Below, piece by piece: positions 1-63,513 of a stretch of 64,000 nt of DNA (position 1 is its first letter; every line of letters begins with the position of its first letter). Position numbers and translations under genes: made by a program. Source of the DNA: Candidatus Roizmanbacteria bacterium (lineage in GTDB: Bacteria > Patescibacteriota > Microgenomatia > UBA1406); NCBI GenBank assembly GCA_024654535.1, contig JANLHL010000038.1, positions 315,824 to 379,823 on the forward strand, given 5' to 3'. Under the pieces are notes generated by a model, which was not told where the DNA came from, searched no databases, and was given only the letters and a program-made list of their open reading frames with translations.

Positions 1-174
1 TTAAGATATCATCTTGCATACGAAGCTCCTCGTATGGTGCAACCATCGGGACTTTTTGACAATAGTAGGGAAAATCTAGGTCTTTTATTATCCAATCATC
101 AGGAGGATTTCCTATGTATTCTGACATTAAGGTATATTATACCAAAATACCTACATAGCCTATCACAAAGCTCT

Positions 175-300
175 AAACCGGGCGGTGCCAATGTTGCCCG
201 CCTTCGCCTCGCTGAATCCCGTAGAGAGAAAGCTGGCTTCACTAAAGTTTCGGCGGGTAAAAGACGTGACCCAAACCAGGAAGTGGGTAAAGCTTTATTT
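175..300. other. GC-rich structured non-coding island (candidate small RNA or regulatory element), related to the 3' flank of tRNA-Asp
   Basis: Clearly more GC-rich than the surrounding sequence. GGGCGG (179-185), CCCGCC (197-202) and GGCGGG (251-257) allow alternative pairings. It shares CCCGCC[T/A]TCGCCTCGCTGAA, GAAAGC-GGCTTC and TTCGGC blocks with the reverse complement of 1759-1855. The overlapping ORF 34..372 looks non-coding. Confidence 0.35.
197..216 (+). repeat. Inverted-repeat arm CCCGCCTTCGCCTCGCTGAA (partner at 1836..1855)
   Basis: 19 of 20 nt identical to the reverse complement of 1836-1855 (CCCGCCATCGCCTCGCTGAA). This is a GC-rich match in an AT-rich genome. Confidence 0.6.
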
Positions 301-343
301 ACAGAAGCTTCGTATAATTGTTGGCAAAGTTTAAAATTTCAAA

Positions 344-850
344 TCATTCAGAACTTTTTCCGTAGCCTGTAAAGTTAATAGGAGCCCTTTGTTGACTGCC
401 CTGCATAGGCAAAAGATCATAGCCACCCATTTGATATACGACGTTTGTTTCTCCTGTTCCGTCTCCTTCAAATCCATAAATGGTACGTACTGCAGTCACT
501 TGTCCACTCATATCAATTCTTTGAGCTTTAAAATCAGCATTTGGCGAATTTGCATCGAATTCCAATTGGATAGTATCCCCATTTAAAGCTTGCCATGATA
601 GGCCACATGTTGCTGGGCCTACAGTAACGGTACGAAAAACATCTTGCAGTGCATGATCTGGTGTAAGTTCGAGCAGTTGTGTTAGAGAATCCGCAGCAAA
701 TGTAGGATTTGGGTCTTGACTGCCTATCCAAATAGTATTTATGAAATGACAAAGAACTTTTTCGTTAGCCAGTTTTAAGAGATGTGTAGCAATTCTTTTG
801 TATTCTGCTTGAAGATTTTCTGGTAGTTGTGGACGTAATTCGCTAGACAT
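344..850 (-). CDS. Hypothetical protein (168 aa), no family recognised
   Basis: ORF 344..886 trimmed to the ATG at 850 (MSSELRPQ...), because TATAAT lies 7 nt upstream of it. The composition is less Lys/Ile-rich than the neighbours. Confidence 0.5.
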   Translation of the reverse strand: MSSELRPQLPENLQAEYKRIATHLLKLANEKVLCHFINTIWIGSQDPNPTFAADSLTQLLELTPDHALQDVFRTVTVGPATCGLSWQALNGDTIQLEFDANSPNADFKAQRIDMSGQVTAVRTIYGFEGDGTGETNVVYQMGGYDLLPMQGSQQRAPINFTGYGKSSE

Positions 851-857
851 AGTATAT

Positions 858-863
858 ATTATA
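858..863 (-). promoter_or_regulatory. -10 box TATAAT, 7 nt before the ATG at 850 (leaderless layout)
   Basis: Minus strand reads TATAAT-atatact-ATG. Confidence 0.5.
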
Positions 864-933
864 CTATAGGAAAAACATGCATGCAAGTTGGGAACGATAT
901 ACCACGAAAGTAAAGGATTGGTCCTAACGTGCG

Positions 934-1434
934 TTAAAGAGTATTCAATAGATTTGGGAATTCTTTACTCAGTTTTTTTCGTAGTTCTTTGGCACTAGTA
1001 ATATAGGTTTCTACATTTCCTTGTACGCGTTCGAACGTTTCAAGCACTTCACCTGTTTTATCTATTGCATACATGAATGCTTCATATTCTTTACCGTGCT
1101 TATCAGTGACAGTAATGTTTTCCTTTCGATACCACCGAGGATATCGCTCCCACCAATCGAGGACTGTTTCTTGATTGGTAGTTATTTCATATACTTTTCC
1201 ATGTATCTTTGCATGTGGATCTGTAGATTTTTGAGCAAAAAGGAACGAAAGAGTGGACATGTCATGTTTACTAGAAATATCGTCGTAGATTTCTGGTGGA
1301 AGGAGATTTGAACCTCCTTTATAAACCGTATAGCCTTGAACGGTTGCTAGAAAAAAAGGTGGCTCAGTGCCTAGTAGTGCAGTAATAATTTTGGGTTCAT
1401 ACAGTGTTCCGAATGTGAAAACTAACCTCTTCAT
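934..1434 (-). CDS. Gamma-glutamylcyclotransferase / AIG2-like family protein
   Basis: N-terminal LVFTFGTL resembles the YGSL/FVYGTL motif of the GGCT fold. Size is ~166 aa. It starts 12 nt after the GIY-YIG gene stop. Confidence 0.55.
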   Translation of the reverse strand: MKRLVFTFGTLYEPKIITALLGTEPPFFLATVQGYTVYKGGSNLLPPEIYDDISSKHDMSTLSFLFAQKSTDPHAKIHGKVYEITTNQETVLDWWERYPRWYRKENITVTDKHGKEYEAFMYAIDKTGEVLETFERVQGNVETYITSAKELRKKLSKEFPNLLNTL

Positions 1435-50413: not shown

Positions 50414-50824
50414 ATGCGTAGTTACATTAGAAGAGTTGTATATTATATGGGCGCACTGTATGCAACGAGTATACTCATTCCAGGATTTTCAGTTATGCAA
50501 TCGGCGAAGGGTTTTCTGATAGCCTCTATTGTGGTGACACTTGCATTTACTTTTTTATCTCCACTCATACGAGTTGTGCTACTTCCTATTAACATAATTA
50601 CTCTCGGGATATTTTCTTGGTTGGCACAAGTGGTGGTATTTTATATTGCGCTTTTATTTTTCCCAACACTGTTTTCAATTAGGAGTTGGAATTTTGTTGG
50701 GTGGCAAGTAACACAGCTAGGTATTACAATAGCACCGATGAGCATCAGTGTATTTGCTACTATTATTATTGCAGCACTTATGATAAGCTTTATAGCGGCA
50801 GTAGTTCAATGGATATTGGGATGA
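50414..50824 (+). CDS. DUF360 / phage-holin-4-like family 4-TM membrane protein
   Basis: Four TMs, with GALYATSILIPGF...LPINIITLGIFSWL resembling the YvlD/DUF360 family. Confidence 0.6.
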   Translation: MRSYIRRVVYYMGALYATSILIPGFSVMQSAKGFLIASIVVTLAFTFLSPLIRVVLLPINIITLGIFSWLAQVVVFYIALLFFPTLFSIRSWNFVGWQVTQLGITIAPMSISVFATIIIAALMISFIAAVVQWILG

Positions 50825-51036
50825 AAATAATACTTGACACACTCTATATACTAGTAGCGGTAGCTGTTATATTGCTTATTTTGTTTCAAGGTCGTGGTGC
50901 AGGTCTGGGTAGTGCATGGGGCGGTTCCGGCGAATCATTTTCGACACGCAGAGGGGTAGAACGCATTACTTTTATGGTATGCATCTTTTGTGTCGCGCTC
51001 TTTTTGGTACTATCTATAGTAAAGTTGTTAGTATGA
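50821..51036 (+). CDS. secG: Preprotein translocase subunit SecG
   Basis: MKIILDTLYILVAVAVILLILFQGRGAGLGSAWGGSGESFSTRRG. Re-called inside ORF 50686..51036, with an ATGA overlap with the previous gene. Confidence 0.8.
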   Translation: MKIILDTLYILVAVAVILLILFQGRGAGLGSAWGGSGESFSTRRGVERITFMVCIFCVALFLVLSIVKLLV

Positions 51037-52412
51037 AAAGCTTCATAAAGCAATTTCGTTTTTCTTACTGGTTATTTAAATCATTTCTTTCCAAACACGT
51101 TCGAGTCATAATCGGCGTATTTGTTGGAGTATTTCTTTTCATATTTCTTACTTCCAGTTTTGGTGATTTTTTTTCTGCTTTTTTCTCATTTAACAAGCAT
51201 AGAGTTGGCGTACTTTCATATGCGAATCAGGGAAATTTACCTATCGAGGTTTTAAATAGAATATCGCTACCTTTAGTTGGGTATGATAAAAAAGGGAATT
51301 TGACATACCAACTCGCAACAAATATTACCCCAACTCAAAAAGGGAATGGGCAAGAGTATTCGGTTACCTTAAAGCATGGGTATTTATGGCAGGATGGTTC
51401 AATATTTAACGCACAAACAATAGACTTGAAATCTGTTGAATTTCCAAGAGTAATGACAAAAGTCAAAAGCTCGGATACTATAACGTTCACGCTTGAGAAA
51501 CCATTGGTCAGTTTTCCTTCGTTATTGACTACACCTTTAGTAAAACAAAACTTTGTTGGCGCAGGCGGGCAGTATAAAATAGCATCAATCCGTTATAAAT
51601 ATGGCGAACTACAACGGGTTGTTATTACACCGCTAGTCAAAAATATGCCTGTTTTGGAATACAAGTTATACAATACTCAGGAAGATATGGTACTGGGTTA
51701 CAAGTTAGGTGAAATTGACGAATTTTCTACCTACGATCCGGCAATTCCTCCTATTTTTTCAAGTTGGAGAAATTCACATATCCAAAAGGTCCCCGATGTT
51801 AAAAAGGTCGTAACGCTTTTCATGAATACAAAAAAAGATCCTTTTGATAACAGGGTTATTCGCCAGGCAGTCGCTCAGGGAATACGCTACAATAAATTTG
51901 ATGTTTATGGGCCAAGGGCATATACATCTATTTTGCCATTTTCTTGGGCATATAACCCAAATGTGAAGGTATACAATACAGACCTTACTATTGCGAAGGG
52001 CCTCGTTGACAAAAATAATTCAAAAGGGAAAGTGTTAACCCTTTACACTTCCTATGAACTGAATCACGTAGCAGAACAAATCAAATCATCTTTGAATGAA
52101 ATTGGCTTACGTGTCACCATACGTTACGCCAACTATGTCCCTACATCAAAAGAAGAATACGATATGTTTTTAGTTATTTTAGAACCTAGCATAGATCCAG
52201 ATCAATATATATTTTGGCATCAGACGCAACAACAGACCAATTACAGTAAATTTACCAATCTGAAGGTTGATAAATTACTCGAAGACGGAAGAATTAAGAA
52301 AACACAGAAAGCGAGAAAAGAAATTTATTTCAAATTCCAAGATATTCTTGCCGAAGAAGTACCCGCACTGTTTTTATACTATCCAAATTTGTATATTATT
52401 TCCCGTAAATGA
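51033..52412 (+). CDS. ABC-transporter-type substrate-binding protein, family 5 (peptide/nickel-like), TM-anchored
   Basis: YSVTLKHGYLWQDGSIFNAQ and DPDQYIFWH...YSKFTNLKVDKLLEDGR...ILAEEVPALFLYYP are SBP_bac_5-like. No permease or ATPase is adjacent. The start is re-called to 51033 (ATGA overlap with secG). Confidence 0.7.
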   Translation: MKSFIKQFRFSYWLFKSFLSKHVRVIIGVFVGVFLFIFLTSSFGDFFSAFFSFNKHRVGVLSYANQGNLPIEVLNRISLPLVGYDKKGNLTYQLATNITPTQKGNGQEYSVTLKHGYLWQDGSIFNAQTIDLKSVEFPRVMTKVKSSDTITFTLEKPLVSFPSLLTTPLVKQNFVGAGGQYKIASIRYKYGELQRVVITPLVKNMPVLEYKLYNTQEDMVLGYKLGEIDEFSTYDPAIPPIFSSWRNSHIQKVPDVKKVVTLFMNTKKDPFDNRVIRQAVAQGIRYNKFDVYGPRAYTSILPFSWAYNPNVKVYNTDLTIAKGLVDKNNSKGKVLTLYTSYELNHVAEQIKSSLNEIGLRVTIRYANYVPTSKEEYDMFLVILEPSIDPDQYIFWHQTQQQTNYSKFTNLKVDKLLEDGRIKKTQKARKEIYFKFQDILAEEVPALFLYYPNLYIISRK

Positions 52413-53773: not shown

Positions 53774-53858
53774 GCCCAGGTGGTGAAATTGGTATACACG
53801 TACGCTTGAGGGGCGTATGCCGAAAGGTGTGGAGGTTCAAGTCCTCTCCTGGGCACCA
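53774..53858 (+). tRNA. tRNA-Leu (anticodon GAG), long variable arm, CCA encoded
   Basis: GCCCAGG/CCTGGGC acceptor stem, anticodon stem TACGC/GCGTA with loop TT-GAG-GG, variable arm TGCCGAAAGGTGT, and a TTCAAGT T-loop. Confidence 0.9.
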
Positions 53859-53869
53859 ACAAAAAAATT

Positions 53870-53943
53870 GACCGCTTAGCTCAGTTGGTTAGAGCATCGC
53901 GTTTACATCGCGGGGGTCGGGGGTTCGAATCCCTCAGCGGTCA
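53870..53943 (+). tRNA. tRNA-Val (anticodon UAC), CCA not encoded
   Basis: GACCGCT/AGCGGTC acceptor stem, anticodon loop TT-TAC-AT, and a TTCGAAT T-loop. Confidence 0.9.
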
Positions 53944-54957
53944 CTAGTTCAAATCTGAAGTAAGACTTATTTCCACTGGTGATTTTTTTAATAATCCAAA
54001 CCTGTATGGACCATATTCTGCTTCATGCTGAGCTGGAAACAAATTATTATCCATTTGATGTCTTCTTTCATCTATCAACTCTCGGATAACTATTTTTTTT
54101 TCTTCAAAAGTTAATCCTATTAATCTGCGTTCAGGATAAATGACACATGAATTTCCACCTGTTGGACCAATCCGTAACCTTGTACATCCGGCTCCAGGAC
54201 AAGGCCATCCATTTGAAAAAGGAGCAATGATGCCTATAGTCATATCCTGATATTCTCCTCCGAGAGTGTAGTATTCTGAATGTGCATTTTGTTTATCAAA
54301 TTGATCTCTTTTTAGATCATCAATTGGAGCAATTTCTCTTATAGCATTGAGAATATCTTCTTTAGGCACGTGATTTTGAGCGAAAAAATCAGGACTAGCC
54401 TCCATATACGGTCCTTGTGGAGTTAATTCACAAAATCGTACCATTACGCCTGTTTTTCTAGAAAATTCAACAAAATCTCTCATTTCGTCAAGGTTATCTT
54501 TCATAACAACCATATTAATTGAAACATGACTTCCGAATAAATTACGTGCTTTTTCAATTGAACCTAGGACTAGGTGAAGAGCGTCAACCCCGGTAATTAA
54601 TTTGAATTTGTCTTGGTTGAGAGTATCAAGGCTAATATTGACGCCAGTCAAACCTGCATTTGCTAAATTTTCTGCCATTTTATAAAAAAGTGCGCCATTT
54701 GTGGTCATTTCAATAGTTTCAACACCTTCATTTTTTATTCCAGCAACTAATTCAACAATATCTTTTCTCTTTGTTGGCTCACCTCCTGTTAAATGAACTA
54801 TCTTGATGCCTAACTGAAATCCTGCACGCACCGTTTCAATCACCTCACTTGTTGTCATCATGTTTGGGTTAGATTCTTTTTTAGGATTACAATAAATACA
54901 TGCAAAGTTGCAACCAGGGTCGGCTGTTATACGTAAAAATTTAAAAGGATTTTCCAT
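53944..54957 (-). CDS. MoaA-like radical SAM enzyme (GTP 3',8-cyclase family homologue; orphan and atypical)
   Basis: FLRITADPGCNFACIYCNP (CxxxCxxC), VHLTGGEPTKRKD, MTTNG, and a C-terminal cluster PCPGAGCTRLRIGPTGGNSC. It ends ...LTSDLN with no terminal Gly-Gly. Its stop codon abuts the tRNA-Val 3' end. Confidence 0.8.
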   Translation of the reverse strand: MENPFKFLRITADPGCNFACIYCNPKKESNPNMMTTSEVIETVRAGFQLGIKIVHLTGGEPTKRKDIVELVAGIKNEGVETIEMTTNGALFYKMAENLANAGLTGVNISLDTLNQDKFKLITGVDALHLVLGSIEKARNLFGSHVSINMVVMKDNLDEMRDFVEFSRKTGVMVRFCELTPQGPYMEASPDFFAQNHVPKEDILNAIREIAPIDDLKRDQFDKQNAHSEYYTLGGEYQDMTIGIIAPFSNGWPCPGAGCTRLRIGPTGGNSCVIYPERRLIGLTFEEKKIVIRELIDERRHQMDNNLFPAQHEAEYGPYRFGLLKKSPVEISLTSDLN

Positions 54958-54988
54958 AAATATTAGTTTGAATTATATGGTAACCTGT

Positions 54989-54997
54989 ATTATACCA
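54989..54997 (-). promoter_or_regulatory. Extended -10 TGGTATAAT, upstream of the radical SAM gene (31-nt leader)
   Basis: Minus strand reads gaTGGTATAAT. A second TATAAT (54972-54977) lies 14 nt from the ATG. Either way, this gene does not follow the 5-9 nt rule. Confidence 0.4.
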
Positions 54998-55152
54998 TCG
55001 GCATATAAGAAGGCTCTATAAACCTTATGATGCTCTGATAATCTGTAAATATACTCAACAAATTCTTCCTAAAATTCGTTTTCAAGGAGTTCTAAGTTTG
55101 TCGCCGACGGTTTACATTCCGGCAAGTACAGCGTGAATTAACTATCTATGAT

Positions 55153-55698
55153 TTACTTGTTAAGTTTTTTTCTTATAGCCAGTTGAACAGCATTAGCGGT
55201 CATGGCATCATTAATTTTGCCAGAGTCTATCATGGCATAGATTTCATCAAAGTTAAAAAATCGGTGATCAGTTAGTTGTTCACCAACTTCTGTGCTAATT
55301 TTTTGTATTATTTCACTTTCAGTAATTACCATAAAAAGTGATACTTTTTCAGTATTGAAACTATGCAGTGGGTAAAATGATCCCAAACTAATTAGCGAAG
55401 TTGAGTTGATGATGACTCCGGCTTCTTCTTTTAGCTCTCGAATCGCCGCATCTGGGATCGATTCACCATCATCTACTCCACCGCCTTGTATTTCCCAACT
55501 GTAATTTTGAATCACATAACGGTGTTCCTTATGAAGCAATATCTTGTTGTTTACACTTACTACTACGATAGCAACTCCATTCTTTCTTTGCACATAGGCA
55601 TACGTGCTTTTTTCCCCATTTGGTAGTACTATCACGTCTTGAAAAAGTTTTAACCAGGCGTCGCTATAGATTTGCTTTTCGCTTATTTTCTTGATCAT
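55153..55698 (-). CDS. NUDIX hydrolase (ADP-ribose pyrophosphatase-like)
   Basis: Nudix box GGGVDDGESIPDAAIRELKEEAGV. Confidence 0.85.
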   Translation of the reverse strand: MIKKISEKQIYSDAWLKLFQDVIVLPNGEKSTYAYVQRKNGVAIVVVSVNNKILLHKEHRYVIQNYSWEIQGGGVDDGESIPDAAIRELKEEAGVIINSTSLISLGSFYPLHSFNTEKVSLFMVITESEIIQKISTEVGEQLTDHRFFNFDEIYAMIDSGKINDAMTANAVQLAIRKKLNK

Positions 55699-55707
55699 AG
55701 GTAACTA

Positions 55708-55716
55708 ATTTTAGCA
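55708..55716 (-). promoter_or_regulatory. Extended -10 TGCTAAAAT, 9 nt before the Nudix ATG
   Basis: Minus strand reads TGCTAAAAT-tagttacct-ATG. Confidence 0.5.
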
Positions 55717-57789: not shown

Positions 57790-58389
57790 ATGGATAGAAA
57801 TGCAAAACAAAAATGGTACAAGAAACTGATAGGTATTGTTTCTACAAAAGATTTACAAACTCGCTATTTGGAACTTGTTCAACTTCACGCGACAACTACT
57901 CATGCATACATATCTGCGTTAGAGAAAATAACGAAAGACAAAGCGAAGGAAGCTAGTAGCGATGGACGATCTGTAGCGCTTGTTGTTGCCCATATTATGG
58001 CGTGGGAAGAATGGCAGATTCAAATATTTACGGATCAGAATAAAGAAAAAAGGCTACAAAAACAGATGATACTTCAAGGATATTATGATACCGACACTCA
58101 AAAAATTGTTGACTTTAAGACCGTTGATGCATTCAATGCGTACTCTGCTAAAAGATATTCGCAACATTCATGGCAAGAAATCAAACAAAAAGCAGTACAT
58201 ACAGCATTGAAACTGCAATCATTATTTCCTATTACAGTATCAAAAGAATGGATTGATTTTTTGCAAAATTCTCCTAAACACAATTGGAAAATATTGCCAA
58301 AGATTACACTGACAATTCCATCGGGTTGGTATCTTTGGATGGTGTCACTCGAGCATGAAGCGGTTGAACACGCTGCTGATTTATACTAA
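57790..58389 (+). CDS. Hypothetical helical-bundle protein (tentatively ClbS/DfsB- or DinB-like)
   Basis: VALVVAHIMAWEEWQIQIF and the following helices resemble the DUF1706/ClbS pattern. This is a weak, by-eye call only. Confidence 0.4.
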   Translation: MDRNAKQKWYKKLIGIVSTKDLQTRYLELVQLHATTTHAYISALEKITKDKAKEASSDGRSVALVVAHIMAWEEWQIQIFTDQNKEKRLQKQMILQGYYDTDTQKIVDFKTVDAFNAYSAKRYSQHSWQEIKQKAVHTALKLQSLFPITVSKEWIDFLQNSPKHNWKILPKITLTIPSGWYLWMVSLEHEAVEHAADLY

Positions 58390-59015
58390 CTTTTCTCTTC
58401 TTTGTTTACGTTCCACAACCGCAATCCTCCATATCCTACAAGTAAGCATCCTACTATTCCGTTCAGTGTCTGTATTAGTAAAACTGGAATAGTACCTTTG
58501 ATGGTAGAAAATAGAATAACAGACGTTCCCATAAACAAAAATGTCGCAAAACCTGTGCCCAAGCCAAACAACAAGAGTTGTTTTCTTTTGTAATCATATT
58601 CTATAGCTTTGGCAGTAAACAGACTGGTAAAAAATACTATCGTCATAGGGCTAGATAACGTAATTAAAAACACTGATAAAAAACTGCCTTTGATAGTACT
58701 TGTAGTATCGATTAACGTCTTCGACATTCCTACTGTTTCGAGTACGCTTTTTAATATTAGAAATCCAAAGATGATTAATACGGTTGAGCTTACAATGCCA
58801 AAAATATTTTTCACTTTCTTTTTTTTAAGTACTTTGCCAATCCCTAAAATAGCAAGCGAAATGTATAGGTAATCAACAAGCGTTACACCAAGTACGCCTG
58901 CAAAACCATCTAGTATTGTTTTTTGCAGTGATAAGTTAATGATGAAGAAGAAAACCGGACCGATAGCAAGCTGTAGAGTCAAACCAGTTAAAAGACCGTT
59001 TCTGAATTCTCTCAT
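58386..59015 (-). CDS. LysE/RhtB family amino-acid exporter
   Basis: Six TMs and an N-terminal GLLTGLTLQLAIGPVFFFII pattern. Confidence 0.8.
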   Translation of the reverse strand: MREFRNGLLTGLTLQLAIGPVFFFIINLSLQKTILDGFAGVLGVTLVDYLYISLAILGIGKVLKKKKVKNIFGIVSSTVLIIFGFLILKSVLETVGMSKTLIDTTSTIKGSFLSVFLITLSSPMTIVFFTSLFTAKAIEYDYKRKQLLLFGLGTGFATFLFMGTSVILFSTIKGTIPVLLIQTLNGIVGCLLVGYGGLRLWNVNKEEKS

Positions 59016-59021
59016 AGTGAG

Positions 59022-59027
59022 ATTATA
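59022..59027 (-). promoter_or_regulatory. -10 box TATAAT, 6 nt before the ATG at 59015
   Basis: Minus strand reads TATAAT-ctcact-ATG. Confidence 0.5.
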
Positions 59028-59061
59028 TCTAAAGTATGCATTCTTTCAAATATGTGTGCTA

Positions 59062-59067
59062 TATAAT
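59062..59067 (+). promoter_or_regulatory. -10 box TATAAT, 9 nt before the ATG at 59077
   Basis: tgcTATATAAT-gatagatat-ATG. Confidence 0.5.
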
Positions 59068-59076
59068 GATAGATAT

Positions 59077-59685
59077 ATGAGATCATTCAACCTGAACATA
59101 GAAAAGGCACAATCGATCATCAAGAAGTTTTTGAAAACGAGCAATAGACCTATGTTCGTTGCTATAGATGGAAGAAGTGGGACAGGAAAATCTACTATAG
59201 CGAACGAGCTAGCAAAACGCTTAGGTGGTGTTGTAATCCTGTCAGATGATTTTTGGGTCGGAGGTACAGACTCAGAATGGTTAGCACGTAAACCGAAAGA
59301 AAGAGCATCTCTAGCTATAGATTGGATGCGGATAAAAAGCGACGTTCTTGAGCCGCTTCTCGCTGGTAAACGTGCATCTTGGCATCCGTTTGATTGGGAA
59401 AAGGGAAGTGGTTTATCTGAAAAATATATTCATGCAGATTCTAAACAATTGATTATTTTAGATGGGGCTTATTCGACGAGACCTGAATTGTTAGACTTAA
59501 TAGATCTAAGCATACTAGTTGAGCTAACAAATGATTTTATTAGGCGTGAAAGACTTGTTAAAAGAGAGAGTAGGGAATATATGACTAATTGGCATAACAT
59601 TTGGGATTCTGCGGAGGATTACTATTTTACTGAGATTAAGACAAGGGCAAGTTTTGATATAATTATTGCGAATGATTTGCAATAA
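59077..59685 (+). CDS. P-loop kinase (uridine kinase / phosphoribulokinase-like family)
   Basis: FVAIDGRSGTGKSTIANELA (Walker A) and LIILDGAYS. The start is re-called from 58939, which is antisense to the LysE gene. Confidence 0.7.
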   Translation: MRSFNLNIEKAQSIIKKFLKTSNRPMFVAIDGRSGTGKSTIANELAKRLGGVVILSDDFWVGGTDSEWLARKPKERASLAIDWMRIKSDVLEPLLAGKRASWHPFDWEKGSGLSEKYIHADSKQLIILDGAYSTRPELLDLIDLSILVELTNDFIRRERLVKRESREYMTNWHNIWDSAEDYYFTEIKTRASFDIIIANDLQ

Positions 59686-59694
59686 GGTAGTTGC

Positions 59695-59943
59695 TCAAGT
59701 ACCAACCTGTTTACTTACATCGCCAAAATATGGGGGAAAAGCCGCATCAATTGCCGCCTTGGGTGAAAATACTCCATCTCGTGCACCTTTGATCAATTTG
59801 TTTCTCCAATAGGCTATAGTAGCAGGGTCTGTATTGTCTATTGCTGTTTGTATCTGAGCGGAAACATTTTGTAGGTCATCAACTCGTAAGTCTTTATGGT
59901 CATTAACCTGAAAGTCTCTGTTACCACCGTTATTTTCAGCCAT
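59695..59943 (-). CDS. Hypothetical small protein (82 aa)
   Basis: MAENNGGNRDFQVNDH... The start is set by TGCTATAAT 6 nt upstream. Confidence 0.45.
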   Translation of the reverse strand: MAENNGGNRDFQVNDHKDLRVDDLQNVSAQIQTAIDNTDPATIAYWRNKLIKGARDGVFSPKAAIDAAFPPYFGDVSKQVGT

Positions 59944-59949
59944 TTTTCG

Positions 59950-59958
59950 ATTATAGCA
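59950..59958 (-). promoter_or_regulatory. Extended -10 TGCTATAAT, 6 nt before the ATG at 59943
   Basis: Minus strand reads TGCTATAAT-cgaaaa-ATG. Confidence 0.55.
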
Positions 59959-60070
59959 TGCATTTTTTGAAAACTGTAACGAGTTCGCGTGATACAACAT
60001 GGGTAAACATCGAAACCCTATGTATAGGGAATTGGATACATTCGTGCTCAGTATATGGAAAGTAATGTAC

Positions 60071-61600
60071 TCAAGCGGGTTTTATCAGGGTTACTAACCC
60101 CTTTTTAGCATCGATTTCTACGATGTCTCCATCTTTAAGAAGTGCTGTGGCATTACCCGTTCCGACAATGCAGGGAACGCCAAACTCTCTAGCTATGATT
60201 GCTGCATGACAGGTTACCCCGCCTTCATCTGTTATGAATGCTGCTGATTTTTCCATAGCTACAATAAAATCTGGCGTTGTCATAGAAGCGACCAAAATAT
60301 CTCCTCTGTTCACTTTTTCAACCTCACGGTAGTCTGTTAATACCTTTACAACTCCTTGTGCAGTACCCAAAGAAGCTGGTGTTCCTTTTATTACTCTTTG
60401 TCGTTTTGCCGACTTGCCAACGACGGTGTTACCTTTATATTTATCTGCAACTGTATGTTGTAACAACTCAGCTTGCTCTCCGAATGTAGTCGTAACGTTA
60501 TCGTTGATTATAACTATTGCATACCCTTTCATTCTTTCGTTTATCAATATTTCTAAATCTTTTTGTTGGCGCTTGTCTAGTAATAAAGCGACGATTTCAT
60601 CAGATGACAGCATCGTAATTTCTTCCGGTGAAAATCGTAATCTTTGTGCAGCTTCTCGAAGCAGTATTGTCCGGGCATTAAATAATAATCGATCAGATGC
60701 TTCGGTAGTGTATGTCCGTAAGAAAATAAAACTTCGTAAGATATCTGCAATATTTTTAAGTTCCTGAGTGAATGTTTTACTGAGCTTTTTGTATTTCGCT
60801 TGATCGGTTTTTCTTATTGTGACAATTCTTGAAATTTCTTCATCTATATTTTTTGAAATAAGATTTTCTAGTCTCTCTAGATATTCTTCTCTTGTGAATG
60901 AAATATCTTCTATGAAGATTGGGCCCTTCATCCACGAATATTTAGACACATGGTTTGCTAGTTTCTTATATAGATCATTAGGAAGATTGTCTAGTGTATA
61001 ACCGCTCTTCTTTATAGACTGCGCAATATAGAGTAGCTCTAATGGTTCATCAGCATAGGCAAGTTCACCAAGTTTTGGATAGGTGGCTATTATTGAAAAA
61101 ATTTCATCTACTTTATGTTTCGCTACTCCCATCGACGTTTGAATAAGTTTTTTTATTTTTGTATCGAGATAGGCGTCTGGTCGAGAAGAAGCTGGTATAA
61201 AAGACATAGTATACTTTTCTTGAAAACTCAAAATTGCTTCAGCAAGTCTGCTGTCTGAAATAGTTCGAGTATCTACTTTTTTTAAATCATCAGCATAGTT
61301 GTTAACGTCCTTGGCAATCTTAAATATATTTTTCACAAAAGACTTTAAGAAATCGGGGTCTTTTTTGAGTATATTTTCGAACACACGGTTGTATTTCGAA
61401 GTTTCATAATCGGTATAGTACTCGTCACCATTTAATATTAAATAATTTTCTTGAGCAATATCGAGCCCGATGTATTTAATAAGAGTTTGAGGTTTGTTTG
61501 CAAGAATTTGAGTATTTTCTACAAACCAGTTAAATTTTCGGGTAACATAGAAATGCCATTCTTTTTCGCATATAATATTAATTAGCACATCGTTGCTCAT
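60071..61600 (-). CDS. PEP-utilising-enzyme mobile (swivel phosphohistidine) domain protein with an unrecognised ~380-aa helical N-terminal region
   Basis: C-terminal GDILVASMTTPDFIVAMEKSAAFITDEGGVTCHAAIIAREFGVPCIVG. I recognised no ATP-grasp or PEP/pyruvate TIM-barrel motifs. Confidence 0.75.
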   Translation of the reverse strand: MSNDVLINIICEKEWHFYVTRKFNWFVENTQILANKPQTLIKYIGLDIAQENYLILNGDEYYTDYETSKYNRVFENILKKDPDFLKSFVKNIFKIAKDVNNYADDLKKVDTRTISDSRLAEAILSFQEKYTMSFIPASSRPDAYLDTKIKKLIQTSMGVAKHKVDEIFSIIATYPKLGELAYADEPLELLYIAQSIKKSGYTLDNLPNDLYKKLANHVSKYSWMKGPIFIEDISFTREEYLERLENLISKNIDEEISRIVTIRKTDQAKYKKLSKTFTQELKNIADILRSFIFLRTYTTEASDRLLFNARTILLREAAQRLRFSPEEITMLSSDEIVALLLDKRQQKDLEILINERMKGYAIVIINDNVTTTFGEQAELLQHTVADKYKGNTVVGKSAKRQRVIKGTPASLGTAQGVVKVLTDYREVEKVNRGDILVASMTTPDFIVAMEKSAAFITDEGGVTCHAAIIAREFGVPCIVGTGNATALLKDGDIVEIDAKKGLVTLIKPA

Positions 61601-61607
61601 TGTATGT

Positions 61608-61636
61608 AAGCTAGCATTAGCAAACTATTTTGTCAA
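61608..61636 (-). promoter_or_regulatory. Promoter TTGACA-17-TAGCTT, 7 nt before the ATG at 61600
   Basis: -35 TTGACA (61636-61631), 17-nt spacer, -10 TAGCTT (61613-61608). Confidence 0.5.
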
Positions 61637-61673
61637 ACGCTGCGCGAATTCTGTTATTGAGACAAAATTTGGA

Positions 61674-61679
61674 TACAAT
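61674..61679 (+). promoter_or_regulatory. -10 box TACAAT, 5 nt before the ATG at 61685
   Basis: tggaTACAAT-actgt-ATG. Confidence 0.45.
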
Positions 61680-61684
61680 ACTGT

Positions 61685-62842
61685 ATGCGAAAGCTTTTTT
61701 TACTACTTATCGGTATCGTCGTTGGTGTTGGTATCGGTTATGCATATTTTAATACTTCTTTATTCTCAAGCGTAGAACATAAGATTCACACAGTTGTACC
61801 CGTTGTTCCGGACAGAAAACAAGTTATAGGTTTTTTACCCTATTGGCTATTATCGAAAGCTGACAAAGAGTATTCCAACTATATCAACACTCTTGCATAT
61901 TTTGCTCTTACTATAAATCCAGACGGATCTATTCAGAAGTATACCAGTCCGCAAGAGTCTGAGCCCGGTTACTATGCACTACAGTCGGGTAAGGCGAGCC
62001 CTTTTTTTAAGGATGCACAGCGTAACAATATGAAGTTATCACTCGTCGTATTTGCGGGAAACGAAGAACACATCGGACAATTGGTGAGCAAACCCACGAC
62101 ACATGCGAGAAAATTGGTAGCAGAAGTCGTGCCCATAATGAAGAAGCATGGTTTCACCGATCTTAACATAGATGTGGAAAGTGTACGTGAGGCATCACAA
62201 TCTGCACAAAGTAACTTTACGCGTTTTGTAAGTGAAGTGAAAAAAGGTATAAAAAAAAGTGGCAATACAGTGTCTATAGATGCAAGCCCAACTGTTTTTA
62301 TAAAACCATACCTTGTCGATCCAAAAGCTGTTGGTGCAATCGTCGACTATTTTATTATCATGGGCTACGATTTTCATTTCGCAGGTTCGTATGTTACTGG
62401 TCCGGTTGCGCCACTCTTGGGTGCTGGCACTATTTCTGAGTTCGATATTGAGACGTCGGTATCTCTGGGAAAACAAATAATTCCGAAAGAAAAATTGATT
62501 CTTGCCCTCCCACTATATGGATACGAATGGGAAACGATAGATACGTTTAATAGAGCAGCTGTTATGCCGGGGAGTGGTATCGCGGCAAGTAATCGCAGAG
62601 TAGAGGAATTGTTGAAGACATGTGAGAACTGTGTAGTGAAACGAGAGGAAGAAGCACAAGAACCTTACGTAGTCTATCCAGATGAAGAAACAGGTACGTT
62701 TCATCAGATCTTCTACCCAGATAAGCAGTCAATGCTCAATAAAGTACAATTTACAGAAAAAAATGAGTTGGGCGGTATAGCATTATGGGCGCTTGGTTAT
62801 GAGGGTGATACGATTCTTGAACCCTTAAGAGGGTACCGGTAA
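61685..62842 (+). CDS. Glycoside hydrolase family 18 (chitinase/YaaH-like), membrane-anchored
   Basis: N-terminal TM, catalytic-type motif FTDLNIDVE (DxxDxDxE pattern) and IALWALGYE. Confidence 0.8.
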   Translation: MRKLFLLLIGIVVGVGIGYAYFNTSLFSSVEHKIHTVVPVVPDRKQVIGFLPYWLLSKADKEYSNYINTLAYFALTINPDGSIQKYTSPQESEPGYYALQSGKASPFFKDAQRNNMKLSLVVFAGNEEHIGQLVSKPTTHARKLVAEVVPIMKKHGFTDLNIDVESVREASQSAQSNFTRFVSEVKKGIKKSGNTVSIDASPTVFIKPYLVDPKAVGAIVDYFIIMGYDFHFAGSYVTGPVAPLLGAGTISEFDIETSVSLGKQIIPKEKLILALPLYGYEWETIDTFNRAAVMPGSGIAASNRRVEELLKTCENCVVKREEEAQEPYVVYPDEETGTFHQIFYPDKQSMLNKVQFTEKNELGGIALWALGYEGDTILEPLRGYR

Positions 62843-62853
62843 CTACTATATAA

Positions 62854-63513
62854 TTATTCGATCGTTGCGTTTCGTGCGTCGCTATCAAAAATCATTGTAT
62901 CCCCTTTGGAAAGCGTGTTCACTTGGCTCTCGAAACTATTGTTGTTGTAGGCTATTTTTACAGATCCACCATGAACGACAACACGGATGAGTGGATCACT
63001 ATCTTCTAGAGAAATAGTGACACTACCCGATACTAGACGAACTAATAAATTTCGTACTCGAACTGAAAGCGGAAATGTATCTGTATTTTGAGAATACGTG
63101 ACAGTTCCTTTATTTTGAGTTATAACAATACTTATCGGGAGCGTTTGGGTAAATGAAACATCAGTATCGTTATCAAGTAGAATTGTTGTATCAATTCCAT
63201 ACGTTATACGTACTGAGCCTTTTTCTGCTGATAGAACACGCTCACCTTGCATAACTGACTGTGCATTTTTAAGTTTTGCTGGTTCTGTTGCATCTCGTGT
63301 TTCAATTTGAATTTCTCCTATAAGACTGCTCATTGTACCCATTAGTGCCTCGCTCGGAGGGTTCTTGATTGAATACGATATGATTTCTGTCGGAATGCTT
63401 CTTGGCAATGTGGAGGGGGTTTTTATTGTTGATTGCACATATTGAATAGAGAACCAATATCCACTTATCCCAATCACAAGGGCGAGGAAGAATAGTAATA
63501 CATTTTTCATCAT
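62854..63513 (-). CDS. Hypothetical membrane-anchored extracytoplasmic beta-rich protein
   Basis: N-terminal TM, then a beta-strand-like repeat pattern. No family recognised. Confidence 0.5.
   Translation of the reverse strand: MMKNVLLFFLALVIGISGYWFSIQYVQSTIKTPSTLPRSIPTEIISYSIKNPPSEALMGTMSSLIGEIQIETRDATEPAKLKNAQSVMQGERVLSAEKGSVRITYGIDTTILLDNDTDVSFTQTLPISIVITQNKGTVTYSQNTDTFPLSVRVRNLLVRLVSGSVTISLEDSDPLIRVVVHGGSVKIAYNNNSFESQVNTLSKGDTMIFDSDARNATIE

Follow-up and report, generated by a model that had tools for sequence, protein, structure and literature searches.

What does a bacterium of the Candidate Phyla Radiation (CPR) do with a MoaA-like enzyme in a neighbourhood where no gene for the molybdenum cofactor (Moco) is found? 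The question is raised by an open reading frame (ORF) for a 337-aa radical S-adenosylmethionine (rSAM) enzyme in a 64-kb stretch of DNA, called the window in what follows, from a contig of Candidatus Roizmanbacteria (CPR; JANLHL010000038.1). An initial annotation had described the protein as an atypical relative of the GTP 3',8-cyclase MoaA, lying next to a Nudix hydrolase, for which a modified-nucleotide pathway seemed at least as plausible as Moco synthesis. The analysis presented here assigns it to a group of proteins termed the RFG-tail family, composed of the window's protein and about 75 related protein clusters, which by sequence comparison is a distinct, previously undescribed sister family of MoaA that has kept the MoaA guanine site. 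It appears reasonably probable that the window's gene is a functional member of this uncharacterised family that would act independently of Moco on a purine nucleotide and feed a nucleotide-modification pathway.

The protein is colinear with MoaA, as had been claimed. The best match among solved structures is Staphylococcus aureus MoaA (1tv7; sequence E 1.7e-24 over residues 3-267), and Foldseek agrees: the AlphaFold2 (AF2) model, with a pLDDT of 84.8 overall and of 53-62 in the RFG tail region, matches MoaA at E 2e-20 and TM ~0.7, followed by BlsE, GDGT-MAS, AbmM and viperins at 1e-9 to 1e-11. Pfam Radical_SAM scores 105 bits and Mob_synth_C 27 bits, the latter under its gathering score of 37.4. 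All motifs quoted in the initial annotation were found again (FLRITADPGCNFACIYCNP, LTGGEPTKRKD, TTNG, PCPGAGCTRLRIGPTGGNSC and the ...EISLTSDLN terminus). MoaA is defined by the radical-SAM cysteine triad, three auxiliary-cluster cysteines, R17, R266 and R268 at the guanine site and a C-terminal GG, with R266 and R268 binding guanine O6 (PMC9026282, PMC12625886). In the alignment, R9 of the window's protein is the equivalent of R17, and R260 and R262 are the equivalents of R266 and R268, so that the purine-NTP-binding residues and the auxiliary cluster are kept. The protein thus shares with MoaA (TIGR02666/TIGR02668; PDB 1TV7, 2FB3) the fold, two [4Fe-4S] sites, three guanine-binding arginines and a homologous hydrophobic-Gly element in the C-terminal tail. 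It differs in the spacing of the auxiliary cysteines, correctly singled out beforehand (C253-x4-C258-x12-C271 against C261-x2-C264-x13-C278 in S. aureus MoaA), and in having His at the position equivalent to R71, where MoaA has Arg. Purifying selection acts on the gene (dN/dS 0.37 against its relative in locus L030, 0.10-0.23 against other members of the clade).

The most distinctive feature is the tail. In an exhaustive profile search over 1.84 billion cluster representatives, approximately 40 representatives matched from end to end, tail included, at 213-410 bits; ordinary MoaAs ranked below (<= ~205 bits) and mostly ended their match near profile position 283. Common to the full-length set, and seen in most representatives of the family, is a [W/Y/M/L/V]-R-F-G motif that precedes the C-terminus by 3-25 residues, whereas MoaAs end in I-G-G. 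The window's protein carries it as Y318-R319-F320-G321, with a conserved His (H311) ahead and 15 further residues behind; R319, F320, G321 and L322 are invariant in a 12-sequence clade alignment. The motif aligns with the ...Y-I-G-G tail of MoaA, F320-G321 falling on I338-G339. The terminal carboxylate of the MoaA tail is used to sense GTP (PMC12625886). The internal [W/Y/M]-R-F-G element looks homologous to the I-G-G end but is not terminal, and judging from the alignment it therefore could not present a carboxylate as MoaA does. The missing Gly-Gly, which had been listed among the deviations, is indeed absent (the protein ends ...SLTSDLN), but it is not a clean deviation: GG is conserved in bacterial and eukaryotic MoaA, not in archaeal MoaA (PMC9026282, PMC12625886), and the archaeal MoaAs P0019 and P0048 in the alignment likewise lack it.

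Phylogeny and profile scores agree in placing the protein outside the bona fide MoaA clade. A neighbour-joining tree (126 sequences, 306 columns, 100 bootstraps) separates the RFG-tail family from all GG-type (185) and archaeal-type (7) MoaAs in 99/100 replicates, and the window's protein, which matches the family profile over its full length and tail, is placed inside the clade. It scores 183.3, 178.6 and 176 bits on the curated MoaA models, below the cut-offs of 284, 325 and 231; four other RFG-tail members also stay under the cut-off of the bacterial MoaA model (155-191 bits), whereas the controls, six genuine MoaAs of bacteria and archaea drawn from the same match lists, reach 356-401 bits. 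Among 55 family members, the radical-SAM cysteines are conserved at 100% (as in MoaA) and the auxiliary cysteines at 94-96%; at the guanine site, the R268 equivalent (R262) is kept in 100%, the R17 equivalent (R9) is R/K in 92% and the R266 equivalent (R260) is K/R in 79%. Where S. aureus MoaA has R71, 83% of the family carry His, versus R/K in 99% of MoaAs. NCBIfam and Pfam hold no model specific for the RFG-tail family, no published description of it was found in the literature on MoaA-like enzymes, on Moco in CPR or on rSAM enzymes with Nudix, nucleoside diphosphate kinase (NDK) or HD partners, and public pipelines often label its members 'MoaA'.

The family tree comprises three groups, of which group A (Y/L-RFG), the clade of the window's protein, is sister to groups B and C. 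Group B (W-RFG, CPR/DPANN) contains all the fusions and cassettes, and group C (M/V-RFG) the operon-type members. Five independent domain fusions were found in the family (P0144, P0136, P0149, P0166 and P0126; see the table), the one with a kinase being present in two assemblies, including that of a Diapherotrites archaeon. The Nudix fusion was checked at the DNA level: the Nudix box and the CxxxCxxC/GGEP motifs lie in one uninterrupted ORF (L024 810-2255, Logan SRR33677529) with UGA as a sense codon. Translation of L024 with code 25 (UGA=Gly) restores ...FWRFGL where the database protein P0144 shows W (RFW), and the contig is probably from Gracilibacteria/Absconditabacteria. The window's protein is 38.7% identical to the rSAM half of this fusion over 323 aa. 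In addition, three independent group B loci carry tight, same-strand cassettes in three gene orders, one of them recovered from a human-gut metagenome among other sources. Their Nudix proteins are MutT/NudG-like, the NDKs divergent and the HD proteins generic; the carbamoyltransferase of the Moranbacteria cassette (L029) is TobZ/NovN/GdmN-like, and a similar one recurs in L015/16 beside short-chain dehydrogenase/reductase (SDR), aldo-keto reductase (AKR) and thymidylate-kinase genes. Moco genes were found in none of the more than 12 RFG-tail family loci examined; true MoaAs, by contrast, are fused to a molybdate transporter (P0161) or, in eukaryotes, to MoaC (P0319). The operons of group C contain a second MoaA-like rSAM, a nucleotidyltransferase, a methyltransferase, a major facilitator superfamily (MFS) transporter, PqqD and SPASM rSAMs.

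The absence of Moco genes noted earlier holds for the window as well, where Moco-pathway and molybdoenzyme Pfam families gave no match at E <= 1e-10 among the ~65 ORFs scanned. The proposal of a modified-nucleotide pathway is supported at the level of the family, through fusions and conserved cassettes with Nudix and other nucleotide phosphate enzymes, but not in the window's own subclade, where the Nudix adjacency is not conserved. The link with Nudix, NDK and HD is demonstrated in the sister group and not in group A. Seven group A contexts were seen, the window included, and the Nudix gene is directly adjacent in one of them (the window) and within two genes in one more (L003, where a methyltransferase adjoins the rSAM gene and the Nudix gene is two genes off); the contexts of L001/2 and of L007/L021 are without Nudix.

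How could such an enzyme work? It is proposed that the N-terminal [4Fe-4S] cluster would cleave SAM to a 5'-deoxyadenosyl radical and that the [4Fe-4S] cluster of the twitch domain, together with R9, R260 and R262, would hold a 6-oxopurine nucleotide, for which GTP or something closely analogous is the likeliest candidate. A 6-oxopurine NTP is the likely substrate because MoaA takes GTP and ITP, not ATP, through the same residues. The radical would then attack the ribose, leading to 3',8-cyclisation or to another outcome of hydrogen abstraction from the ribose, and the internal Y-R-F-G motif may stand in for the terminal I-G-G of MoaA as an active-site gate. The product would not serve Moco synthesis and would enter a nucleotide-modification pathway. 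In the sister clade, NDK would make the NTP, the MutT-type Nudix and the HD phosphohydrolase would strip phosphates, and an O-carbamoyltransferase would sometimes take part; the pathway would yield a modified nucleoside or nucleotide with an antiviral, antimicrobial or other role. The ADP-ribose-pyrophosphatase-type Nudix of the window might be a phosphate-trimming or detoxifying partner.

Several observations weigh against this proposal. The fusions and cassettes all belong to group B, so that function is transferred to group A across ~39% identity, and the cassette contexts sampled amount to only three independent ones. Most group A contexts show the gene on its own, and no NDK or HD homolog of the cassette type was found in the 64-kb window. 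The window's Nudix is of another subfamily and is not orthologous to the MutT/NudG-like Nudix of the cassettes (similarity is confined to the Nudix-box region); moreover, it is set apart from the rSAM gene by 195 bp with a promoter-like sequence. Every MoaA catalytic residue is kept, as a true, merely divergent MoaA would show, and the PqqD, SPASM rSAM and second-rSAM operons of group C would allow parts of the family to act on non-nucleotide substrates.

With respect to the Nudix gene itself, its position directly upstream of the rSAM gene on the same strand, 195 bp away, was verified. No other ORF of the window has a Nudix box (in the 181-aa protein, at residues 73-95, 55414-55482), and an immediate adjacency to the rSAM gene would arise by chance in approximately 3% of cases. 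The best NCBIfam match is NudE, under the cut-off, and the best PDB matches are 2yvm and ADP-ribose pyrophosphatases. The promoter-like TGgTATAAT in the spacer lies ~31 nt before the rSAM ATG, and the rSAM gene may therefore be transcribed on its own; the scan of the spacer found no terminator-like sites. The leaderless promoter that the initial annotation had given to the Nudix gene exists as a site (55737-55708, 9/12 matches plus TG), but promoter-like sites are no commoner here than in shuffled sequence (7 found, 8.9 expected). A partnership between the rSAM enzyme and the window's own Nudix is tentatively entertained and somewhat doubtful. In its favour count the single Nudix box of the 64 kb and the presence, ~4 kb off, of a udk/PRK-like kinase ORF akin to the kinase domain of the fusion.

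The window's gene is a rare, horizontally mobile accessory gene, given that the close clade is carried by 2 of 185,579 species-representative genomes and that members occur in mobile-element, transposase and decayed-copy contexts. In one group A context (L004-L006; JGI Ga0620843/Ga0620842/Ga0620852) the member lies inside a putative CPR conjugative or plasmid-like element with a Replic_Relax relaxase, a TrwB/TraG coupling protein, a DnaG-type zinc-ribbon primase and KfrA. The L030 relative, 84% identical over the match, has other downstream genes than the window, and the L031 relative (86% identical) has a rve-type DDE transposase (61-1185, minus strand) directly upstream, where the window has the Nudix gene; homology of the window with L030 and L031 starts only at about codon 8. 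A rve_3 fragment also lies directly upstream of the Moranbacteria cassette (L029 1-135). The rve and rve_3 genes directly upstream in L031 and L029 suggest insertion sequence (IS)-mediated mobility of family genes. In L033 (1625-2230) a decayed copy adjoins an AAA_14/DUF4143 ATPase; it has lost the GGEP...TTNG region through an internal deletion, and its reading frame breaks off after RIGPKK. A phage origin was considered and rejected: IMG/VR holds no full-length member with either subclade profile, and BFVD gives generic rSAM folds only.

Could the gene nevertheless encode a genuine, divergent GTP 3',8-cyclase for the molybdenum/tungsten cofactor, making 3',8-cH2GTP with the other Moco genes elsewhere in the genome or the intermediate exchanged with a host? 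MoaA models are its best profile matches and MoaA its best fold match, all six cluster cysteines and the equivalents of R17, R266 and R268 are kept, archaeal MoaAs likewise lack GG, and several relatives are named MoaA by public pipelines. On the other hand, the protein falls 50-145 bits under all three curated cut-offs, which the controls pass; the family forms a separate clade (99/100) found without Moco or molybdoenzyme genes in the 64 kb or in more than 12 family contexts, and its fusions are to Nudix, NDK, HD and kinase domains and not to MoaC or a molybdate transporter. The restriction of the close clade to 2/185,579 genomes and the association of the gene with an IS and a conjugative element also speak against a cofactor enzyme, which is thus very unlikely. 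A non-nucleotide substrate (a peptide, such as a ribosomally synthesised and post-translationally modified peptide, or RNA), with a coincidental Nudix adjacency, would suit the existence of peptide maturases such as SkfB among twitch-domain rSAMs, the PqqD and SPASM-type peptide maturases in group C loci, and the lack of a conserved Nudix adjacency in group A. It is most improbable in view of the guanine-binding Arg triad and open-site auxiliary cluster conserved throughout the family and of five independent fusions to nucleotide-metabolism domains; additionally, no conserved precursor-peptide-like partner was seen in groups A or B.

The two remaining alternatives keep the nucleotide and differ in its destination. 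The initial annotation had called viperin-type antiviral enzymes close relatives of MoaA; for the window's protein, the similarity to them is only that of radical-SAM proteins in general (NF038283, 44 bits against a cut-off of 180; Foldseek E ~1e-9 and TM 0.5-0.6 for viperins against 2e-20 and 0.7 for MoaA; PADLOC pVip 53 bits over the rSAM core only). Viperin identity is rejected on both profile score and fold, and membership of a defence system is rejected as well, PADLOC showing generic pVip and Nudix similarity only. Viperin is not known to have an auxiliary cluster, acts on CTP, UTP or GTP at C4' and has another C-terminal extension; the likeness lies in an rSAM presumed to act on an NTP, its coupling to nucleotide kinases and a patchy accessory distribution. 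A viperin-like effector built on the MoaA scaffold might convert GTP during phage infection to a chain-terminating or polymerase-poisoning analogue, with kinase, Nudix and HD proteins supplying substrate or limiting self-toxicity. The accessory, patchy and mobile nature of the gene would fit, and the kinase associations parallel the pairing of pVip with a kinase (for which PADLOC has models) and of CMPK2 with viperin; one member has AAA_15/AAA_21 ATPases and a resolvase for neighbours, and the family is absent from viral contigs, hence host-encoded. However, defence-system profiles match only as generic rSAM, neither score nor fold makes the protein a viperin, the majority of contexts cannot be recognised as defence islands and Escherichia coli MoaA itself has no antiviral activity in published assays, all of which makes this alternative unlikely. 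Also quite unlikely is a role in the tailoring of a nucleoside-type natural product for secretion (an antibiotic or a toxin), comparable to the rSAM steps of the oxetanocin, blasticidin and albomycin pathways. TobZ/NovN/GdmN-type O-carbamoyltransferases lie beside members in two unrelated contexts, one of them with SDR and AKR; an MFS exporter, a methyltransferase and a nucleotidyltransferase are found in the Parasphaerochaeta operon. The fold matches next after MoaA include BlsE (7VOB) and AbmM (8WM2), two nucleoside-antibiotic rSAMs of the twitch/MoaA-like type, which carry out sugar modifications on cytosine nucleosides or nucleotides. Nevertheless, this resemblance is remote (sequence E 1e-8 to 1e-14 over the core only, TM ~0.5), these enzymes as aligned lack the Arg triad and the RFG signature and belong to other gene clusters, and none of the tailoring genes lies near the window's gene; CPR genomes, moreover, seldom carry biosynthetic clusters. 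In the oxetanocin-A pathway, OxsB and OxsA pair an rSAM with an HD-domain phosphohydrolase on purine nucleotides to give a nucleoside analogue. OxsB, however, depends on cobalamin and belongs to a different rSAM subfamily, and the HD proteins of the RFG-tail cassettes are only generically HD.

A purine-nucleotide-directed enzyme outside Moco synthesis thus remains the preferred reading, and its consequences would be considerable. MoaA is treated as a deeply conserved enzyme with one function, and RFG-tail proteins are labelled 'GTP 3',8-cyclase' by annotation pipelines. If the reading is true, CPR and DPANN genomes are credited with more Moco capacity than they have, and the MoaA scaffold has been recruited for other nucleotide chemistry. 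A bolder and rather unlikely extension would see in the RFG-tail family a 'viperin-like' invention made a second time, independently, on the MoaA scaffold in ultra-small symbionts (CPR and DPANN, including human-associated ones). GTP would then be converted to a new modified guanine nucleotide or nucleoside, which NDK, Nudix and HD enzymes would process and which would be used as an analogue against viruses or directed at a host. The interest comes chiefly from the undescribed, experimentally tractable cassette of the relatives: the Nudix-NDK-HD-rSAM set is compact and expressible, and might lead to a new modified nucleotide, as happened with prokaryotic viperins. It might also tell how symbionts with minimal genomes protect themselves or manipulate the hosts they live on.

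Table. Coordinates in the window of the rSAM gene, its motifs and its neighbours, followed by the fusions and cassettes of relatives.
Feature	Position, protein or locus	Strand	Basis or remark
Radical-SAM enzyme, 337 aa	53944..54957	-	ORF, Pfam/NCBIfam scores, PDB sequence and fold matches
Radical-SAM [4Fe-4S] motif C16-x3-C20-x2-C23 (CNFACIYC)	54889..54912	-	Sequence; R9 just upstream
Auxiliary [4Fe-4S] ligands C253, C258, C271 flanking R260 and R262	54145..54201	-	Alignments to S. aureus MoaA
C-terminal motif F307-P-x2-H311-x3-Y315-x2-Y318-R319-F320-G321-L322	53992..54039	-	Invariant RFGL in clade alignment
Nudix-rSAM spacer, 195 bp	54958..55152	-	Contains TGgTATAAT (54997-54989), ~31 nt before ATG
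Nudix hydrolase, 181 aa, ADP-ribose pyrophosphatase/NudF/NudE type	55153..55698	-	Pfam NUDIX, 58 bits
tRNA-Leu(gag), tRNA-Val(tac)	53774..53944	+	ARAGORN; convergent with rSAM; locus boundary
Uridine-kinase/PRK-family P-loop kinase-like ORF	58939..59685	+	AAA_18 match; weak accessory candidate
NUDIX+rSAM fusion	P0144		
rSAM+NDK+HD fusion	P0136		
PRK/uridine-kinase+rSAM fusion	P0149		
DSPc phosphatase+rSAM fusion	P0166		Weak
Archaeal-type SAM synthetase (MAT)+rSAM fusion	P0126		
Cassette [GNAT-Nudix]-NDK-HD-rSAM	L025-27		Includes human-gut metagenome
Cassette rSAM-HD-NDK-Nudix-carbamoyltransferase	L029		Moranbacteria
Cassette HD-[Nudix-rSAM]-NDK	L024		P0144 contig

Some loci of group C deserve separate mention. 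In L008-L013 and in L014 (7130-9008) the group C member is preceded by a shorter (~295 aa) MoaA-like rSAM paralog with 131-158 bits on the MoaA models. In spore-forming Firmicutes the rSAM pair lies between spoIIGA-sigE and cysS, and some contigs have the first paralog broken up into two ORFs. L014, from Parasphaerochaeta coccoides (CP002659.1 476313-493320), is operon-like, with two MoaA-like rSAMs, NTP_transf_2, a methyltransferase, an MFS gene, PqqD, a Rce1-like protease and a third rSAM; the family member of this species is annotated MoaA by NCBI. In L017/L018 (5800-10344) a divergent class-I lysyl-tRNA synthetase (LysRS)-like gene of 734-751 aa (98 bits, under the cut-off of 148) overlaps the start of the family rSAM by 4 nt; a PapB-like SPASM rSAM follows, and the island also carries resolvase, AAA_15/AAA_21 and ATPase_2 genes. 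A partnership with aminoacyl-tRNA synthetases (aaRS) was rejected: the cysS beside the Firmicutes members is a genuine cysteinyl-tRNA synthetase (374 bits against a cut-off of 340), its adjacency may be ordinary synteny, and the LysRS-like gene of L017 is the only divergent aaRS among these.

Downstream of the rSAM gene, the last base of tRNA-Val is also the last base of the rSAM stop codon. A genomic island at this tRNA was rejected, as neither a repeat of the tRNA 3' end nor meaningful direct repeats nor an integrase were found. The rest of the window is of a housekeeping nature, with a division/cell-wall cluster, DnaK/DnaJ/GrpE/HrcA, TopA, UvrABC, an aaRS and glycosyltransferases. Just after uvrC, a 136-aa ORF (50414-50824, plus strand) matches Phage_holin_4_2 (holin superfamily IV, four transmembrane segments), with no other phage genes seen nearby. 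Two overlapping same-strand ORFs (50686-51036 and 50916-52412, plus strand) lie at the start of a SBP_bac_5 gene, which leaves the start of the 498-aa ORF uncertain. Pfam gave no match for three ORFs, at 57790-58389 (plus strand, 199 aa, also without an NCBIfam match), 59695-60000 (minus strand, 101 aa) and 62854-63513 (minus strand, 219 aa). The kinase-like ORF of the table, ~4 kb from the rSAM gene, has a udk score of 38.7 bits, under the cut-off, and is 27% identical over 181 aa to the PRK domain of the P0149 fusion (pairwise E 1e-7). It forms part of an accessory-looking stretch around 57790-63513 that also encodes an alpha/beta hydrolase, a LysE exporter, a phosphoenolpyruvate (PEP)-utiliser-domain protein and a GH18 enzyme.

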